Virus record (IMG/VR): IMGVR_UViG_3300033067_001501
Location: 1-25,730 of that record
Direction: 5' to 3' (one strand)
Length of the DNA: 25,730 nucleotides
Origin: a virus
Lineage: Duplodnaviria > Caudoviricetes
Of the stretch, positions 1 to 6,946 are shown piece by piece. Below the pieces are notes generated by a model. The model had not been told where the DNA came from, made no database searches, and saw only the letters and a list, made by a program, of their open reading frames with translations. Each line of letters begins with the position of its first letter. Position 1 is the first letter of the stretch. The position numbers were made by a program, and so were the translations under genes.

Positions 1-105
1 TCCGATACCGTTCGGTCCCTTTAACACGACGACACCACCGCCGTCAGGGACCGGGATCGACAGCTTCGCAATCGCCCCCACGTTCTCGATCAGCACACTC
101 GACAT
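1..105 (-). CDS. 5' end of an SMC/SbcC/RecF-like AAA ATPase (runs off the window)
   Basis: Hand translation from ATG 105: MSSVLIENVGAIAKLSIPVPDGGGVVVLKGPNGIG. This has the typical 'I.N...I..L.I......V.L.G.NG.G' start with a Walker A motif; AAGGGG SD upstream. Not in the ORF track. Confidence 0.8.
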   Translation of the reverse strand, partial: MSSVLIENVGAIAKLSIPVPDGGGVVVLKGPNGIG

Positions 106-140
106 ATCACACCCCTTAAAAGTTGATCCGCCCCGCCGCC

Positions 141-335
141 CTACAACCACTCCCCGTCCTCGTTCGTTCGTCGTTCATCCTGGATCGCGTCACGCACTTC
201 GCCCCGGTGAATCGGCAGCGACCTCGGTGCGTCGAACCCCAACCAGACCTTGTTCCCGCGAACCTTCGTGACCGTCACCTTCACGTCGTCGCCGATATAG
301 ACCGTCTCGTCTGGAAGTCGTTCCAGAATTAACAT
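141..335 (-). CDS. csrA: CsrA/RsmA-family RNA-binding translational regulator
   Basis: 64 aa MLILER..DETVYIGDDVKVTV..VRGNKVWLGFDAPRSLPIHRGEV matches the CsrA signature (MLILxR, IGDD, V.LG..AP....HR.E); GGAGG SD. Confidence 0.93.
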   Translation of the reverse strand: MLILERLPDETVYIGDDVKVTVTKVRGNKVWLGFDAPRSLPIHRGEVRDAIQDERRTNEDGEWL

Positions 336-348
336 GCTCGCCTCCGTG

Positions 349-444
349 CTATGTGTTAGGGTCGCCCCAGTTCTGAATCACCACCCCGATAGCCAGTGCT
401 GCTACAAACAACAGCGGCCACAATGCTGCTGCGGTGTCGAACAT
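349..444 (-). CDS. 31-aa single-pass membrane peptide
   Basis: MFDTAAALWPLLFVAALAIGVVIQNWGDPNT*. Its ATG overlaps the upstream stop (TGATG) and it fills the gap before the csrA SD. Confidence 0.7.
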   Translation of the reverse strand: MFDTAAALWPLLFVAALAIGVVIQNWGDPNT

Positions 445-917
445 CACTGCGCAGTTCCGTCCGCCAGCGGATAGCCCGCCGTGTCCGGGATGCCTGTCTC
501 GCTGTTCGCTGCCGCCGCTTCCGCGGGCGTCTGCGGGGAGTAGTAGGCGTTCATCGCTTCGACGATGGCGCGGATGGTTGCCGACGGGGACGCTCCGCCC
601 TCTTGGAACACAGGCGTACTCAGAAGGTCCGAATCATCCAGCGTGAGACGATCGTCAGCGGAATAACTGGAGTCGCCACCGGGAGCGGCACGCCACGGCA
701 CAGGCGGCACGCCTGGCGGAAGCGGCTCCTGCACCTCGCTCTTCAGCCGTTGAACCACCTTTTCCGCGATCTGATCGGCTGTCATGCCGCCTGCGATGCG
801 AACGATTGGTTCATCACACAGAGCTTCGTCGATTGCCGCTTCGAGGATGTCCGCCTCTTTGGCCAGGCCCTTGTCTCGAATCGCGGCCAGTGCTACCGCC
901 GCTGCTATCGCTTCCAT
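444..917 (-). CDS. hypothetical acidic protein, 157 aa
   Basis: ORF in the early operon with GAAAGGT SD; no recognisable motif. Confidence 0.65.
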   Translation of the reverse strand: MEAIAAAVALAAIRDKGLAKEADILEAAIDEALCDEPIVRIAGGMTADQIAEKVVQRLKSEVQEPLPPGVPPVPWRAAPGGDSSYSADDRLTLDDSDLLSTPVFQEGGASPSATIRAIVEAMNAYYSPQTPAEAAAANSETGIPDTAGYPLADGTAQ

Positions 918-957
918 AAGATACCTTTCGTGTTAATGGGAAAGTGTGAGACGTAAG

Positions 958-1365
958 CTATTTCGCCTTCGCGGCCCGCTTCTTCCCCTTGAGGGACGGG
1001 GCCATCGACACCGCAAACTTTGACCGCAGGCGGGTCAGTTGCCCTCGCAGCTTGTCACTCTCGTCCTCAAGCGTCTCGACCTTGCGTTCGTAGACGCCCA
1101 CCGCGACGCACTGGCGGATCGCGTCGTTGTTCTTTAACCGGGCCTCGTGTCGCCACGAGCGCTCACGACTCGCCAGCAAGATCACGTCTGACACAAGGCT
1201 CCGCAGTTCTGTCTTTTGCTCCGGTGTCGCCAGCCCGAGGAGAGTCAGTGTGAACTCCACCCGACGGGCAACCCGTTGCCCAAACTCGTCCAACTCGCGG
1301 TCCTCGTCGGACCTCGATTCCATCTGTGGCAATGCCACGTAGTTCCCAGCACTCGATCCACTCAT
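958..1365 (-). CDS. hypothetical protein (135 aa) with C-terminal coiled coil and basic tail
   Basis: Probable start MSGSSAG at 1365 with AAGGGTG SD; the longer 313-aa call is an off-frame read of the upstream repeat. Confidence 0.7.
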   Translation of the reverse strand: MSGSSAGNYVALPQMESRSDEDRELDEFGQRVARRVEFTLTLLGLATPEQKTELRSLVSDVILLASRERSWRHEARLKNNDAIRQCVAVGVYERKVETLEDESDKLRGQLTRLRSKFAVSMAPSLKGKKRAAKAK

Positions 1366-1373
1366 GTCACACC
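1357..1373. repeat. 17-bp direct repeat TCCACTCATGTCACACC, copy 1 (RBS plus start of the 135-aa gene)
   Basis: Identical to 2172-2188. Confidence 0.85.
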
Positions 1374-1376
1374 CTT

Positions 1377-2180
1377 TCACGATGAAGAAACGCGGCCAAC
1401 GGCACACATACGCGAGACGAGACCAGTAGCCGAGAGCTGCAACTTGGCTTTCGTCGGCGACAACGCAGCCCAAGCGGCATCCCGAGCGGCACCCCAATCG
1501 GCATCCCGAGCGGCATCCAGAGCGGCATCCAGAGCGGCATCCAGAGCGGCACCGAGAGCGGCATCCCGAGCGGCATCCCAAGCGGCATCCCAAGCGGCAT
1601 CCCAAGCGGCAGCCCGAGCGGCATCCAGAGCGGCATCGAGAGCGGCATCGAGAGCGGCATCCCAAGCGGCAGCCCAAGCGGCATCCCAAGCGGCAGCCCG
1701 AGCGGCAGCCCGAGCGGCATCCCGAGCGGCAGCCCGAGCGGCAGCGAGAGCGGCATCGAGAATCGGCGCAACTACGTCGACGTTGCTCGCCGTGATCTCG
1801 TCCAATCCGCGCAGGGCTTCCGCGTGCATCCGGGTTGTCTCCGTCAGTGACATCCATTCCGCAAGACACTCGCGGACCAACCAGTCCAGCGCCATCCACG
1901 ACCTGCGCAACTCATCCGCGTCGGTCGTGGCCGTGCCGATCACCTGATTCAGCAGCGGGCCAAGCAGTCGCTGTCGGTCTCTGTCCGATCCCAGATCGTC
2001 ATTCCATATCCGCATGAATGACGCGATGATCGGCGACACGCACTTAGGGCGATCGCTCCACCCCTCGCCAGCGATGTAGGCCGCAGCCTCCATCACGCAC
2101 ATATCTTCGCCAGGGCTATGCGAACCTGTCCGGAAGGCGTAGTCGCCCGCCAGAAGACGCTCCTTCAGGTCTCCACTCAT
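1377..2180 (-). CDS. phage protein with Ala-rich AA[W/R/L][D/A/G] tetrapeptide repeat region
   Basis: N-terminal GSH...MCVMEAAAYIAGE.WSDRPKCVSP domain followed by AAWDAARDAALD repeats; GAGGTG SD. Confidence 0.85.
   Translation of the reverse strand: MSGDLKERLLAGDYAFRTGSHSPGEDMCVMEAAAYIAGEGWSDRPKCVSPIIASFMRIWNDDLGSDRDRQRLLGPLLNQVIGTATTDADELRRSWMALDWLVRECLAEWMSLTETTRMHAEALRGLDEITASNVDVVAPILDAALAAARAAARDAARAAARAAAWDAAWAAAWDAALDAALDAALDAARAAAWDAAWDAAWDAARDAALGAALDAALDAALDAARDADWGAARDAAWAALSPTKAKLQLSATGLVSRMCAVGRVSSS
1464..1761. repeat. coding 12-bp degenerate tandem repeat, about 25 units (e.g. GCGGCATCCCAA / GCGGCATCCAGA / GCGGCAGCCCGA)
   Basis: Directly visible, period 12. Confidence 0.95.
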
Positions 2181-2188
2181 GTCACACC
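2172..2188. repeat. 17-bp direct repeat TCCACTCATGTCACACC, copy 2 (RBS plus start of the 267-aa gene)
   Basis: Identical to 1357-1373. Confidence 0.85.
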
Positions 2189-2196
2189 TCGTGCGT

Positions 2197-2420
2197 CAAC
2201 AAAACACCGAGGGCCGCGACAGCGCGCCGGGGAGCAGCGCGAACAGGCCGTTGTGGGGAGCATGTTCGACCGCGCTCGGGCGGTTGATGGTGACGCATCA
2301 ACACGGACCCGGCGCGCTGTCGTAGCCCTCGGTGTCGTCGCACCGAGACCGCAGAGGGCGGCAAGAATGCGACTGGTCAGTTACTCGTCGCGGTCGGGCT
2401 TTCAACTCCGATTCGCGACG
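2197..2420 (-). promoter_or_regulatory. structured 5' leader / attenuator of the early operon
   Basis: 28-bp inverted repeat 2204-2231/2308-2335 (2 deviations) enclosing two sub-hairpins, followed on the minus strand by UUUUGUU; competing hairpin CTCGGTG 2328-2334 / CACCGAG 2341-2347. Confidence 0.65.
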
Positions 2421-2425
2421 GAACG

Positions 2426-2454
2426 AATCCTACGATTAGTCGTGGGATTGTCAA
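2426..2454 (-). promoter_or_regulatory. sigma70-type early promoter with overlapping palindromic operator
   Basis: TTGACA (2454-2449), 16-bp spacer, TAGGAT (2432-2427); palindrome AATCCTACGA-TTAG-TCGTGGGATT at 2426-2449. Confidence 0.75.
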
Positions 2455-2473
2455 TCGACAGATACAAATTCTG

Positions 2474-2686
2474 TCAAGATTTCTGAACAGGGCGACGGCC
2501 GGGGCTTCGGTCACCCGCAGCGTATTGCTTAAGGGAGTCGGTCTCGACGAGCCAGCATCGCTCGGAAACCTTCGTGGCTTTTAGCCTTCCATCCCGGATA
2601 AGTTCGTAAACGCGCCCGATGGTCACGCCGAGGAATTCGGCTGATTGCTTGACGTTCTTCGCGGCGATGTCTAAGGCCATGCTCAT
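2474..2686 (-). CDS. excisionase-like (HTH_17/MerR-type) DNA-binding protein, 70 aa
   Basis: NVKQSAEFLGVTIGRVYELIRDGRLKATKV...WLV..DSL winged-HTH pattern with GRRP tail; divergent from the integrase. Probable start is ATG 2686 (or 2680), not 2887. Confidence 0.85.
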   Translation of the reverse strand: MSMALDIAAKNVKQSAEFLGVTIGRVYELIRDGRLKATKVSERCWLVETDSLKQYAAGDRSPGRRPVQKS

Positions 2687-2692
2687 GCTCCG

Positions 2693-2721
2693 AATCGTAC
2701 ACGCTATCGCAGGATTAGCAA
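2693..2721 (-). promoter_or_regulatory. promoter of the HTH gene with a degenerate copy of the operator
   Basis: TTGCTA (2721-2716), 16-bp spacer, TACGAT (2699-2694), then ATG after a further 7 nt; aligns without gaps to the 2426-2454 promoter. Confidence 0.65.
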
Positions 2722-2726
2722 CGCGG

Positions 2727-2803
2727 AAAAACGCTGAGACGTTGAAAGCCCGCGACCAGTCGAAGCGGATGCCGAACCTCGCGGTGTCGGCCGTCTCAGC
2801 GTG
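2727..2803 (-). ncRNA. putative ~77-nt branched antisense RNA (P4 CI / P1 C4-like architecture)
   Basis: Perfect 11-bp stalk 2731-2741/2792-2802, two internal hairpins, 8-nt unpaired GCUUUCAA and a 3' U run; 2741-2762 is complementary to 2370-2406 of the early leader. Confidence 0.55.
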
Positions 2804-2976
2804 TACCCAGTTATGCCGAAGGTGGGAGCGCGCATGGAAAACGCAACACGTCGGCAAAGCTGGCAGGTCCGCGCATCGGGTTTCCAAGAATGCGGCGCAG
2901 AATTCGCGTCCCCCTGTCGCGAGGCGTCCGGGGTTTACATGCTGACTTTCCGGTAAGCCGTCACCGGAGACACATC

Positions 2977-3858
2977 ATGTACCTCGTTGATCTGCTCGCT
3001 CGTTATCGTGCCGCGAAGCTCAAGGATGCTTCGCCGAACACGGATCAGAAGTTCCGGCAGGCCATCGCTGAACTGGCTCGATCTGTCGGTCACGCCCCAA
3101 CGTTGGACGACCTGGCGGACGCGAACATCGACGCGATGATGATCCGCAAGGCACGGCAGGGACGGTCCCCGGCATCGGTCAATACGCTGGCCGCGAAGCT
3201 CTGCGCGATGTGGACCTGGGCGCACAAGAAAGGCATCACCACGACTGGCCCGGACGTGCAGATGTTGAGGGAGCCTCGCGTCGCGCCCGTAGCGTGGACC
3301 CGCGAGCAACTCGACCAGGTGTTTGAGGCTGTGGCTCAGGCCGAGGGAGTCATCGCCGGAGTGCCTGCCCCGCTGTTCTGGCGGTGCTTGTTGTCGATCC
3401 TGTGGGACACGGGGGAACGTCGTGGTGCGATTGTTAATCAGTTGCCGTGGGAGAATCTGGCGAACGGGCAGCTACTCGTCCCGGCGTCTGCCCGCAAGGG
3501 GAAGACTCGCGACATGGTCTACGCTCTGCACCCAGAGACATTGCGGCTCTGCGAGCATGTGCGAGCGTTTGGGACGCCTACGATCATCCATTGGGACCGC
3601 ACGGTTCATCAGTTGGCGAACCGGTTCCGGACGCTCTTAAAGCGTGCCGGGCTGCCACACGACCGCAAGCACCTCTTCCACTGCATCCGCCGCTCTGTCG
3701 CCAGTCACGGGGCCGCAGCGGGGGCAGACGCCTCGCAGCTCCTCGACCACTCAGACCCGTCGATCACCCGGCGGTACTATCTCGACCCTCGAATTGTGCC
3801 AGCACCGAGGGCGGTTGACGTGCTGTTCCGGCCGGACTCGCCGCGGCCCGCTGCGTGA
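2977..3858 (+). CDS. int: tyrosine recombinase / integrase, 293 aa
   Basis: Catalytic set DTGER(R), K (RKGK), HCIRR (HxxR), LLDHS, TRRYY; SAM-like core-binding N-terminus (SPASVN); GGAG SD before ATG 2977. Confidence 0.93.
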   Translation: MYLVDLLARYRAAKLKDASPNTDQKFRQAIAELARSVGHAPTLDDLADANIDAMMIRKARQGRSPASVNTLAAKLCAMWTWAHKKGITTTGPDVQMLREPRVAPVAWTREQLDQVFEAVAQAEGVIAGVPAPLFWRCLLSILWDTGERRGAIVNQLPWENLANGQLLVPASARKGKTRDMVYALHPETLRLCEHVRAFGTPTIIHWDRTVHQLANRFRTLLKRAGLPHDRKHLFHCIRRSVASHGAAAGADASQLLDHSDPSITRRYYLDPRIVPAPRAVDVLFRPDSPRPAA

Positions 3859-3874
3859 TTGCCGAAATCGATGC

Positions 3875-4084
3875 TCACGACTTCGCGGGCTTCTCCTCGA
3901 CGGGCTTCGCGACCTTCGGGCGCCCCCTGGTCATCGTGTCCGCCAGTTCCGGCCGCCCCATCGCAGCACAGAGCGTCCGGCGAATCCAGTCCGCCTCGAC
4001 GAATCCGTTCGCGTCGCAAAACTCCCGCATCGCAGCCTGGATCGCGTCGCTCATCGGTATGGACTTCAGTCGACTCTTGGTCAT
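3875..4084 (-). CDS. small ribbon-helix-helix (CopG/Arc-like) DNA-binding protein, 69 aa
   Basis: MTKSRLKSIPMSDAIQAAMREFCDANGFVEADWIRRTLCAAM fits strand-helix-G-helix; RGRP AT-hook-like tail. Confidence 0.6.
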   Translation of the reverse strand: MTKSRLKSIPMSDAIQAAMREFCDANGFVEADWIRRTLCAAMGRPELADTMTRGRPKVAKPVEEKPAKS

Positions 4085-4103
4085 TGTGGCCCCGCAGTAT
4101 GGT

Positions 4104-4148
4104 GAAACGAAGAAACCCGGCGAGTCGCTTTCGCGGTCTGCCGGGTTT
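4104..4148 (-). terminator. intrinsic terminator
   Basis: AAACCCGGC 4113-4121 / GCCGGGTTT 4140-4148 with inner CGC-GAAA-GCG tetraloop on the minus strand, followed by a U-rich tail (UUUCUUCGUUUC). Confidence 0.75.
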
Positions 4149-4303
4149 GCTTGGGGACTGATTCGCCGTCCCTCGCTAGGTCTGATTCCCCGACTCCCGG
4201 TAGTGTGCCGATTCCCCGCACTTCTCGGTAGGCCGATCTCGCTGGCTCCCCGCATCTGGCCGCGTTCGGGGGCCAGGTCCTATGTCGCAGTCGCCTGCGT
4301 CAT
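4105..4303 (-). ncRNA. putative ~200-nt small RNA with repeated GG[G/C]GA[A/G][U/C]C[A/G] hairpin loops
   Basis: Bounded by a near-consensus promoter and a terminator; four similar 9-nt loops; only a 7-codon ORF at its 5' end. Confidence 0.6.
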
Positions 4304-4309
4304 GGTGTT

Positions 4310-4361
4310 ATTATACATACCTTTTCGGCTTGGTCAACGGAAATGTACATATCTTTTTCGG
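4310..4361 (-). promoter_or_regulatory. near-consensus sigma70-type promoter with overlapping direct repeats
   Basis: TTGACC (4337-4332), 16-bp spacer, TATAAT (4315-4310); repeats TACATACCTTTTCGG 4314-4328 and TACATATCTTTTTCGG 4346-4361. Confidence 0.8.
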
Positions 4362-4403
4362 ATTTTCTGGAAAACGATCAGAAGCCCGCGTTTTCGCAGT
4401 CGC

Positions 4404-6050
4404 TCACTCCAAATCTGCATGTCGGCACCGCACCGACCAGTCGATCTTCGCAACCCATCCCGCCGACGAAATGTCCTCAAAAAAATTCGGGTCAAAGTCG
4501 CCGCTCTTTCCGCCGTGGTGCAGCACCGTCGCCGTGAACACGCTGGAACGCAACAGCAGGCACCCAAAGCCTGTTCCGCCGACAACCTGCAATCCCTCGC
4601 CCGGCTCGGTGAGAACGCGGCAGGAGCGATCCCACGCGAAGTAGCCCGCCTGATAGCGTGACCTGTACGCACCGGACACGCTCACCGTGTCTTGCTCCAT
4701 GCCGCGCATCAGGCGTTCCACGGCATCGACCGGCGGGAGAACGTCGTCCTCGACGATCAGCGTGTATGGGGTCGCGATCTCTTGTCGGACCCGGTTGTAG
4801 ATCCGCGGCATCGCCCTCTGCACGCCCCGATACACCTCTTCCCGGTGCCTGTTTGCATCCGCCAGCCCGGCGTCCCCGACTCGCATTGCAACGTACTGCG
4901 TGGCTCCGTATCGGCACCCGGCCAGCCAGTGCCGAACGTCGCGACCGAAAGCCTCGTCGTCGCTCGTGTCGACGATCAGGATTCGCGTCTGATCGGTCGG
5001 CCACGCCTGCCGTTCCAGCCAGTCCGCAATCCTCGGCCACCATTGACGACGACCGGAAAGTGGAATCGCAATCGTGACGTGCTCCATCGCCAGCCCTGCG
5101 ACCTCAAAATGCGGTCTCGTCGTCAGGTAGACCGTGTGCCCTTCCCCGTGCCGTCGATACTGGTGGACCGCTGGTGATTTGACCGCCTTCCACCCATCGG
5201 CGAGCAACTGCCGCCAGATATACCAATCTTCCAGCGTGCAAGCCGGGATGTCCCGCTCGAACACGCGGGCCGACTCCAGCGCAATCCGCCGCGCCAGTGA
5301 CGCCGCGTGGATGTAGTTTCGCTGGCTGATGTCACCTGGCTGGAAGTTCAGCCGCTCGTTTCGCAGCCCGAAATTCTGGCAGTCCGTGAACACAATTCCG
5401 ACGCCAGTGTCGAATCGTTTCACGCCCTCGGAGAGGTAATCCGGCCGCAACAGGTCATCCGCGTCAAAGAACGTCACCCAGGGGGCCGTAGTCGCGGCAA
5501 ACCCTGCTGCTCTGGCCTTGTGGATGTTGCGCACGTCGACCGCGATTCGTCGCACCCCGTACCGCTCGCACACTTCCGCCGTGTCGTCCGTCGATGCGTC
5601 ATCGACAACCACGATTTCAGCCGGTGCCATGATCTGCGCGTTGAGGCTGTCCAATGCCTCTGGCAAGAACCTGCCGTAATTGTGGCAAGGAATGATGACG
5701 GCAACCGGTGCGACAGGTTTTTGCTCGCCGCGGTCATCGCACTTTCGGCACACCTTCACGCCCTTTATTGCGTGCTGGTTGATCGTGCATTCCCCCGCGA
5801 TCGCACAGGCGAACACGTCGACAACCGGCCCCCCGACACACCGTTCCAGTTTGCAAGTGTCCTGCCGCAGAACGGAACCGCGATGCACACACGGCAGTTC
5901 GGTCGACGACTGCAGCCGACGTGCGTCTTTGGACCGTGGTAATTCTCCCCGCTGGCACTTCGCCAGCGTCCCGGACGTAACTGCCATTTGCCGTGACGGA
6001 CACCACCCGGCGGCTTGGCACTCGCAGTTTACCGGTTGTCTGGCCCTCAT
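4404..6050 (-). CDS. Cys-rich N-terminal domain fused to two tandem GT-A (GT2-like) glycosyltransferase domains, 548 aa
   Basis: GT 1: VIIPCHNYGRFL, VVVDDASTD, FFDADD, EDW. GT 2: VTIAIP, LIVDTSDD, LIVEDDV, GTGFGCLLL. 11 Cys in the first ~105 aa; ATGA overlap with the upstream gene gives start 6050. Confidence 0.9.
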   Translation of the reverse strand: MRARQPVNCECQAAGWCPSRQMAVTSGTLAKCQRGELPRSKDARRLQSSTELPCVHRGSVLRQDTCKLERCVGGPVVDVFACAIAGECTINQHAIKGVKVCRKCDDRGEQKPVAPVAVIIPCHNYGRFLPEALDSLNAQIMAPAEIVVVDDASTDDTAEVCERYGVRRIAVDVRNIHKARAAGFAATTAPWVTFFDADDLLRPDYLSEGVKRFDTGVGIVFTDCQNFGLRNERLNFQPGDISQRNYIHAASLARRIALESARVFERDIPACTLEDWYIWRQLLADGWKAVKSPAVHQYRRHGEGHTVYLTTRPHFEVAGLAMEHVTIAIPLSGRRQWWPRIADWLERQAWPTDQTRILIVDTSDDEAFGRDVRHWLAGCRYGATQYVAMRVGDAGLADANRHREEVYRGVQRAMPRIYNRVRQEIATPYTLIVEDDVLPPVDAVERLMRGMEQDTVSVSGAYRSRYQAGYFAWDRSCRVLTEPGEGLQVVGGTGFGCLLLRSSVFTATVLHHGGKSGDFDPNFFEDISSAGWVAKIDWSVRCRHADLE

Positions 6051-6946
6051 TGTGTTACCGAACCAGCGAGGTAGTAGGGCGGAATGGTGCATCCACCCGG
6101 ATCAGGTATGTACGTGTTGCCGGGAATCTTGCCGACTTCTTGGATGATTGGATCAGCCGGAACGCCGTTGCACATCGGCCCGGATGCGGTCACCGTATAA
6201 GGAGGAGTCTCTTCGTCGTCATGTAAGATCGGGCCGCTCAAAACAGCGTTTACGGGACTGCAACTTTGCATTGAAAGTGTTCCGAACACGACACCGAGCC
6301 AGCCGCTTGTCGCCGACCAACCGATGTTCTTTTCGTACCATGCCCCATAAACAGTCGTGTTCGGACACGTCTCCCGCCACAGTGCTTCAAATCGTGTCGT
6401 GCTGGCTTTGTACCACGGCGTATCAGCCACCCAGCCCCAGACGCAGGAACCACCTGTTCCGGCGGTGCTCAGGAAATCCGCCCCAGGTGCGAGAACCATA
6501 TCCTTGGCGACGAATATGCGCCCAGTCGGGACGGGCGTGATGCTGTTTCGCGTCCAGTAGCTGCCCGGCCAAAGGTCAATCCCAAAGTCAAACAGGTCGC
6601 GTGATGCAGACACGTACCACCCGCTCCGGCTATGGATCGTGTCGAGTTCGTCGCCGTGCTGTCCGGGAAAGGCGCTTAACGGCCCGTAGGATGTGCGGTA
6701 GGCATTCGGAATCGGGCGCTCGTATGTCAACGGGATGGGACCCGTCTCCTGCATCAGTGTTACACACTCACTCAGTGGACAAAGTGTGTAATTCTGAATT
6801 CCGCCAGACGGCCCGGCGTATTGTGCGAGAACGCGACTCGTCCACAAACCCACATCAAAATCAAGAGACTGCACGCCGTGCCCGCCGTCTCTAAACATCG
6901 TGGACGCACAGCAGGTATCCGTACAGCAGCATCCGCCGAGTGGCAT
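6047..6946 (-). CDS. putative tail-tip protein with N-terminal poly-Cys motif, 299 aa
   Basis: Starts MPLGGCCCTDTCC at ATG 6946 (TAATG overlap); Gly/Trp/Tyr-rich, beta-type composition. Confidence 0.7.
   Translation of the reverse strand: MPLGGCCCTDTCCASTMFRDGGHGVQSLDFDVGLWTSRVLAQYAGPSGGIQNYTLCPLSECVTLMQETGPIPLTYERPIPNAYRTSYGPLSAFPGQHGDELDTIHSRSGWYVSASRDLFDFGIDLWPGSYWTRNSITPVPTGRIFVAKDMVLAPGADFLSTAGTGGSCVWGWVADTPWYKASTTRFEALWRETCPNTTVYGAWYEKNIGWSATSGWLGVVFGTLSMQSCSPVNAVLSGPILHDDEETPPYTVTASGPMCNGVPADPIIQEVGKIPGNTYIPDPGGCTIPPYYLAGSVTQ

Follow-up and report, generated by a model that had tools for sequence, protein, structure and literature searches.

What controls the early genes of this phage is the question raised by the DNA between its integrase gene and its early operon, where the first-pass annotation saw no CI-like repressor and proposed an RNA-based immunity switch. 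The window, by which the whole stretch of DNA analysed is meant, is the IMG/VR record in full (25,730 nucleotides, 25.7 kb; completeness ~38%). Its minus strand carries lambda-type terminase and portal genes, together with those of a ClpP protease and a Mu-like capsid protein, and a 562-aa protein with glycosyltransferase family 2 domains is encoded at the end of the late region (4404-6092, minus strand). The early operon runs leftward and has csrA among its genes; this phage-encoded CsrA homologue (141-335, minus strand; PF02599, E 9e-20) is a possible further regulator at the RNA level. The first early gene (1377-2180, minus strand) encodes a 267-aa protein with many AARAAA/AAWDAA-type repeats, which falls in PHROG families of unknown function. 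The first early genes had either no Pfam match or a match to CsrA. The integrase gene marks the other side of the locus:

2977..3858, plus strand: tyrosine integrase of 293 aa (PF00589; PHROG integrase), divergent from the RNA element

Integrase-based searches yielded 165 loci (L-numbered below); 131 of them reach 480 nt or further upstream of the integrase gene, and 103 of these are non-redundant. Eight of ten source genomes of integrase relatives are titled Planctomycetota, and such relatives were present in 38 of 401 genomes of that planctomycete class; because they sit mostly in genomes so titled, the host is probably a planctomycete. Among the GenBank phages searched, no integrase relative was identified and DNA matches were at chance level only. 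A direct integrase search of viral contigs gave no match. The integrase is short and ends in Ala-Ala (3853-3858, plus strand), as do the integrases of L013, L014 and L047, which is reminiscent of protease-tagged integrases.

The proposed switch consists of a small minus-strand RNA and of sites in the leader of the predicted early transcript to which it is complementary:

2727..2802, minus strand: three-stem RNA of ~76 nt, predicted (fold z -3.72; compensatory changes; GYGA cap)
2754..2762, minus strand: antisense box a' (CGACUGGUC) in the P3 loop, exact complement of 2378-2370, co-varying with its target
2741..2752, minus strand: antisense box b' (CGGGCUUUCAAC) in the junction and P3 3' strand, exact complement of 2406-2395, co-varying with its target
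2370..2378, minus strand: target box a (GACCAGUCG), mostly single-stranded, directly after the leader hairpin
2386..2420, minus strand: first leader hairpin (fold; compensatory change in 7 of 9 consensus pairs among 7 loci, in an imperfect alignment)

Refolding reproduced what had been described from the letters alone, namely a ~77-nt branched minus-strand RNA with an 11-bp stalk, two hairpins and a U run. The minus-strand fold of 2810-2720 has an energy of -41.5 kcal/mol (z -3.72), which none of 200 shuffles equalled. In the predicted fold, stalk P1 has 11 bp (2802-2792 paired with 2741-2731), the P2 hairpin (2791-2771) bears the cap C-GCGA-G, the P3 hairpin (2769-2749) has an 11-nt loop, the junction 2748-2742 is unpaired and the stalk is followed by five U. 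The unpaired run measures 7 nt in the minimum-energy fold and 8 nt if P3 loses its closing U-G pair.

The three complementary blocks reported for the leader are exact: 2406-2395 (12/12), 2393-2387 (7/7) and 2378-2370 (9/9). The RNA has its longest exact complement in the 12-mer, on either strand of the window and with the element itself excluded; this block lies 16 bases downstream of the predicted start of the early transcript. When the 244-nt leader was dinucleotide-shuffled 20,000 times, a 12-mer arose in 61 shuffles and the combination of 12 plus 9 in eight. The accompanying statement that the blocks cannot all pair at once has to be narrowed, since simultaneous pairing of the 12-nt and 9-nt blocks is possible if ~15 leader bases loop out. 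Target box b (2406-2395) forms the loop and inner 3' strand of the first leader hairpin, and the 7-nt block (2393-2387) is the outer 3' arm of that same hairpin, with a counterpart in only three of six close relatives. Further box-like matches, at 3883-3892, 4382-4390 and 4434-4444, were treated as chance, being absent from the right-hand regions of relatives examined.

In 15 of the 103 non-redundant related integrase loci, covariance models found the element in the corresponding place, the other 88 giving no model match; L099, L043 (cut off) and L239 are additional to these 15. Its occurrence follows integrase identity: seven of nine loci at 45% or above, three of 27 at 38-45% and five of 67 below that. 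A first model made from eight close sequences recovered five more distant elements (L073, L055, L090, L049 and L080/81), and a second made from 14 sequences recovered L157, L148 and L128, as well as L239 among 30 genomic loci. Where contigs reach, the order is the integrase gene and then, on the opposite strand, RNA, HTH gene, promoter and leader. The exception is L239, from a bacterial genome bin, in which the cassette of RNA, HTH gene, promoter and leader (2991-2379, minus strand) lies ahead of the integrase gene itself. At 832 (minus strand), L239 has a second complement of the RNA junction, 9 nt long, before a hairpin, a U run and another gene. The divergent layout of integrase and HTH genes is also found in relatives without an RNA match.

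Other searches were less productive. A 16-nt pattern gave nine matches, eight of them chance and one a true relative in which RNA and target are nearly unchanged around an HTH protein down to 37% identity. Five of eight and one of two gapped-pattern matches lacked model support and were set aside. The seven weak model matches in 151 genomes of the phylum, none in a context of integrase, HTH gene and target, were likewise rejected. None of 12 family genomes searched with the model had a match, and in a search of five genomes four gave weak matches only (E above 0.1).

The stem covariation that had been proposed as a check on the RNA was found: among 14 aligned sequences, compensatory change on both sides occurred in 19 of 22 pairs and 86% of cells pair, in an alignment that was structure-fitted and therefore biases the covariation count favourably. 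None of 500 shuffles equalled this pairing level, and slid controls reached 37-46%. The P2 cap C-GYGA-G is present in 15/15 sequences, and the minus strand outfolds the plus strand in 12/15. From these comparisons the element likely acts as a conserved antisense-type RNA, for which comparative support is strong.

Co-variation of the RNA with its target, the second check, was scored as the best two collinear Watson-Crick blocks between the antisense segment and the first 75 bases of a leader. Twelve specificity types were compared, leaving out near-duplicates (L011, L012, L099, L041), loci with the target cut off (L043, L073) and L239, which was found later. The mean two-box match was 16.5 nt with the own leader and 9.8 nt with the leaders of other phages; none of 200,000 permutations reached the sum, a count that is not a clean probability, as the segments were defined after data inspection and the sequences are related. 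The own leader was best in 12/12 types (11/12 by the automatic rule, before manual correction of the L013 leader start), and a control stretch in the HTH gene scored 9.6 for own and 9.0 for others. For L157, L148 and L128, which were found without using targets, the best match is likewise to the own leader. Ranked by duplex energy, the own leader came first in only 8/12 types, with the L013 leader start mispicked there. The first-pass suggestion of a C4/CI-like RNA whose unpaired segments match the early leader is thus supported by both structure and co-variation.

Individual loci show how the boxes change. A separate downstream box a is present in 10 of the 12 types; in L148 and L128 the P3 loop is short and a single long box (b) predominates. 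L010 and L012 differ by a single compensated base change in box a, and in L013 a G-U wobble brings the b duplex to 12 pairs from 7, a gain available only to a minus-strand RNA. The boxes of L239, read by eye, are of 6 nt and 7 nt. Between the window and L011, the boxes are fully conserved at 52% integrase and 37% HTH protein identity. Matches were also found in public sequencing runs (11 listed, two of them filed as RNA and both from one study; four were aligned). In their assembled, strandless contigs, related phages cover ~2172-2804 and diverge beyond. Another variant of the target box, with changes at 2379, 2399, 2402 and 2405-2407 (window 2370-2420), occurs in contigs of runs X10 and X5 and points to further specificity types among close relatives; no RNA to match it was recovered. 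One contig of run X1 tracks window 2675-2770, after which unrelated sequence replaces the 5' half of the RNA; this joint at 2770 may be a chimera, a deletion or a recombination joint.

Between the RNA and its target lie an HTH gene and two predicted promoters, and further features occupy the leader:

2694..2721, minus strand: HTH-gene promoter TTGCTA-16-TACGAT, predicted, 7 nt before the ATG, with an operator-like half-site in the spacer
2474..2686, minus strand: HTH_17 (excisionase-like) protein of 70 aa (PF12728, E 1e-8; PHROG DNA-binding and excisionase matches)
2461..2477, minus strand: first TTGACA, located at the stop of the HTH gene and unchanged in all 8 aligned loci
2427..2454, minus strand: early promoter TTGACA-16-TAGGAT, predicted (promoter scan; palindrome)
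2177..2380, minus strand: possible leader frame of 67 codons, whose CTG start would overlap box a and whose stop lies over the ATG of the next gene
2196..2335, minus strand: long leader hairpin with 28-nt arms (2335-2308/2231-2204)

The early promoter is one of only two promoter-like sites in 1900-4600, and the RNA lies upstream of it and outside its target transcript, as in the first-pass annotation. An 18-of-22 palindrome covers the spacer and -10 of this promoter (2448-2427), its score being reached by two of 300 shuffles, and is a probable operator. The spacer is palindromic beyond chance (at most 4/300 shuffles) in 6 of 13 loci, window included, with the L013 site mispicked. The TTGACA of 2461..2477 belongs in several relatives to an inverted repeat, TTGACA-N5/6-TGTCAA, and from its conservation is a probable protein-binding site. 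A possible start codon abuts box a in some loci (CTG in the window; TTG in L011 and L090; ATG in L010, L099 and L055) and is absent from others. A conserved leader peptide was ruled out, since the frames vary in length and sequence. Between the long leader hairpin and the ribosome site that serves the first early gene (ATG 2180) lies a short U-rich run, and no nucleotide likeness to the hairpin was found in the fetched relatives.

A sigma-70-like promoter site with 7-9 of 12 consensus bases lies just past the RNA and a few bases before the ATG of the HTH gene in 13 of 15 loci (automatic rule), and the HTH message is probably near-leaderless. Part of this promoter (2706-2716) forms an inverted repeat with part of the early promoter (2426-2436). 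Across ten loci, the spacers of the two promoters match in 7.5 of 10 positions within a phage and 6.3 across phages (reached by 46 of 200,000 permutations), a modest effect, and the window palindrome resembles those of L055 and L090, whose HTH is unrelated. The HTH slot is filled by HTH_17 proteins in close relatives and by HTH_3 (Cro/CI-type) proteins in the four distant ones tested (L055, L090, L049 and L081). Its own promoter, the operator-like sequence in common with the early promoter and these Cro/CI-type replacements together suggest that the 70-aa protein is probably a repressor; it is possibly also a recombination directionality factor. The initial view that no CI-like repressor is present therefore holds only in part: no S24 domain was found in the window (~38% complete) or in four related records (one of the five being 88% complete), but the HTH gene itself is a probable repressor gene with HTH_3 in its slot in relatives. 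Control of the early genes is likely two-layered, by RNA and protein repressor.

L013 and L014 give a picture of how these parts may move. Their integrases are 98% identical and their DNA is identical for 209 nt up to the GCGA cap, past which the boxes, the HTH proteins (45% identical) and the promoter spacers are different; directly after box a the leaders come together again. Such a pattern looks like the exchange of a cassette reaching from the second half of the RNA to box a.

The source of the RNA was sought in the DNA upstream of it:

2803..2976, no strand assigned: conserved non-coding stretch from RNA to integrase gene, with blocks invariant in 8 loci

This stretch is a candidate for the 5' part of a precursor, the integrase promoter or an attachment site. 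The promoter scan found no promoter-like site within it, and comparison of the intergenic DNA with 401 genomes gave scattered chance-level matches with no shared attachment core. No promoter for the RNA was found. The weak TTCCAT-N18-CATAAC at 2839-2810 offered by the first-pass annotation is present as a sequence, but its -10 hexamer is not kept in relatives and it was rejected. Transcripts reading in from the right, such as those of the strong promoter at 4337-4310, possibly supply the RNA. This promoter (TTGACC-16-TATAAT) opens a unit at 4337-3875 (minus strand), in which a structured leader of ~220 nt, with a hairpin and U-rich run near 4147-4105, precedes a 69-aa gene convergent on the integrase gene. 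The 69-aa protein has no Pfam or PHROG match and looks ribbon-helix-helix-like by eye; small genes resembling it occur in L010-L012, and its leader is shared only in part. In L148, a complete tRNA-Ala(GGC) gene (2170-2316, minus strand) lies between the integrase gene and the RNA, on the same strand as the RNA and ending at its 5' end. This adjacency may fit release of the RNA from a precursor; a processing signal or an attachment site may also be marked by it.

With a probability of roughly 0.6, the reading preferred here is that a processed, trans-acting immunity RNA pairs with the early leader and stops early-gene expression, beside a probable protein repressor. Like C4 and CI, the RNA would be released from a longer precursor transcribed leftward. 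Box b' would touch the loop of the nascent leader hairpin, after which box a' would pair with the single-stranded box behind it. By analogy with P4 and P1, pairing may block ribosome loading on the short leader frame or refold the leader, and transcription would then end before the early genes. The HTH protein would bind the palindromes at its own and the early promoter, and boxes, HTH gene and operators would be exchanged between phages as one cassette that sets immunity groups. Once the cost of opening is included, box a has a predicted site energy of -10.9 kcal/mol and box b one of -5.7 kcal/mol (folded) or -8.5 kcal/mol (nascent). Nested co-folding of the full RNA with the leader gave values near zero (+0.5 at 60 nt, -1.4 at 26 nt, -3.4 at 75 nt) with no cognate preference; binding must therefore rely on loop contacts or co-transcriptional capture, which that model omits. 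Occupation of both boxes produced no consistent change in predicted access to the ribosome site of the first early gene across 12 loci, and a switch at that site was rejected.

The best placed of the alternatives, itself unlikely, is that pairing breaks up a terminator or an inhibitory hairpin and so switches on the early operon, with lysogeny kept by the HTH protein alone. In L090, L128 and L148, box b sits in the loop of a GC-rich hairpin followed by a terminator-like run with at least 7 U in 9 bases. Pairing at these hairpins could relieve termination instead of causing it, so that control could run in either direction. The complement also reaches the hairpin arms (13 nt in L148, 11 nt in L128), and activation by a phage RNA has a precedent in IsrK of Gifsy-1, going by the portion of PMC4825925 available. 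The window and its six closest relatives, however, have no U run after the hairpin, and box a of L090 sits past the U run. Fast divergence of the boxes between near-identical phages, moreover, fits escape from repression, as in P1/P7 (PMC5320573, in part).

Pairing in cis comes next and is also doubtful. A long leftward transcript, containing the RNA domain, HTH gene and leader, would fold back on itself and end there, so that the lysogenic transcript spares the early genes. The HTH gene and the leader each have a conserved promoter of their own, the target starts at the predicted early start site, and the spacing of element and target varies with HTH length, all of which argue against a single folded transcript. 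Element and target do lie on one strand, 334 nt apart, and only five U follow the stalk, with no terminator-like site found on the minus strand of 1900-4600; in L239, the cassette precedes the integrase gene itself, an arrangement also in keeping with a cis role.

It is improbable that the pairing, while real, merely dampens early expression and that immunity comes from the HTH protein or from a repressor outside the 38%-complete record. Such a division of labour would suit the operator-like palindromes at both promoters, the divergent integrase-HTH layout in relatives lacking an RNA match and the modest predicted binding energies. It sits poorly with boxes that are fully kept between the window and L011 despite 37% HTH identity, and with the absence of an S24 repressor from all five records, the 88% complete one included. 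Least probable by far is the first-pass annotation's own alternative that the shared blocks are DNA sites for the integrase or HTH protein and the fold incidental: the blocks are DNA inverted repeats beside the integrase gene and an excisionase-like gene, but the boxes follow neither integrase nor HTH identity (different at 96-98% integrase identity in L013/L014 and L010/L011, identical at 52% integrase and 37% HTH identity in window/L011), and stem covariation and G-U pairs point to RNA.

Beyond repression by a trans-acting RNA, a broader proposal is put forward tentatively, at somewhat less than even odds: that the locus is an uncatalogued, portable immunity cassette of planctomycete phages. 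A C4-shaped RNA, a near-leaderless HTH repressor from either of two unrelated families, operators and target leader would swap as a block, with the crossover at the GYGA hairpin. The cassette would carry two codes (RNA-RNA and protein-DNA), keep its RNA as a stand-alone gene outside the target transcript, and be placeable before other operons, the integrase gene included.

RNA-based phage immunity has been worked out in a small number of enterobacterial elements (P1/P7, P4, N15). The present RNAs form a family undetected by Rfam and probably residing in Planctomycetota; the C4 family is listed for Proteobacteria. They comprise at least 12 natural specificity types, with what looks like a clear case of cassette exchange between near-identical phages. 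Such natural variants let the sharing of the lysis-lysogeny decision between RNA and protein, and the rise of immunity groups, be tested, and candidates for orthogonal RNA-leader pairs can be drawn from them directly.

All 4,227 Rfam families were scanned and none matched at the element. The C4 model (RF01695, gathering 45 bits), proposed as a check by the first-pass annotation, gave no match in any of five records at E<=10, nor in window 1-6000 (E<=1), window 2340-2860 (E<=10) or six relatives. No report of such an RNA in planctomycete phages was found in the literature, a comparison outside which the c4-2 description (PMC5737381 supplement) and the candidate tables of PMC10690425 stand. Portions of PMC3632133, PMC5499578, PMC8546580 and PMC10690425 served as further sources.

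The build and mode of action of C4 and its GGW RNase P motif are described in the available part of PMC5320573, and published C4 alignments in that of PMC2864571 (supplement 5). Going by these portions, the element resembles C4 of P1/P7 in its ~77 nt, three stems, tetraloop-capped P2, ~10-nt P3 loop and short 3' junction, in its two variable antisense boxes a' and b', and in having gene and target on one strand. As in the c4-a1b1 target, the leader opens with a CC-GUCGC-type hairpin in many members. Unlike C4, the element has a shorter stalk, with ACG in place of GGW (PMC5320573) at its start and a U run at its end. The sole target found lies downstream of the RNA, separated from it by the HTH gene and by a promoter of its own, and box b lies inside the first leader hairpin. 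No icd-ant operon follows, the next gene being HTH_17 with its own promoter, and the probable host phylum is outside the Proteobacteria for which C4 is listed.

P4 CI with seqA/seqC (IsrK-like leader) is likewise a small RNA matched to the leader of an early transcript, for which premature termination has been proposed (PMC4825925, PMC10111431, both in part), and it too adjoins an integrase gene and an excisionase-like HTH gene. According to the same portions, CI is processed out of the very transcript that it controls, where it lies between seqA and seqC, whereas the present RNA lies ~310 nt upstream of the promoter of its target. A target on the other side of the RNA was not found, there being no exact complement of at least 9 nt between RNA and integrase start. 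The IsrK and C4 models did not match, and the phage is a tailed one with its own head genes, not a satellite. In P1 icd and P4 kil a start codon abuts the target box, as a possible start codon does in several loci here. The small excisionase-type HTH protein, which could repress early promoters, recalls the dual excisionase-repressors 186 Apl and P2 Cox (PMC7498355, PMC3936717, as far as the available portions go). Apl binds direct repeats, in contrast to the predicted palindromic sites here, and the HTH slot, unlike that of Apl and Cox, is shared with Cro/CI-type HTH_3 proteins. Judged by its predicted build, the RNA would work like C4 and CI, yet it is not counted as a member of the family.
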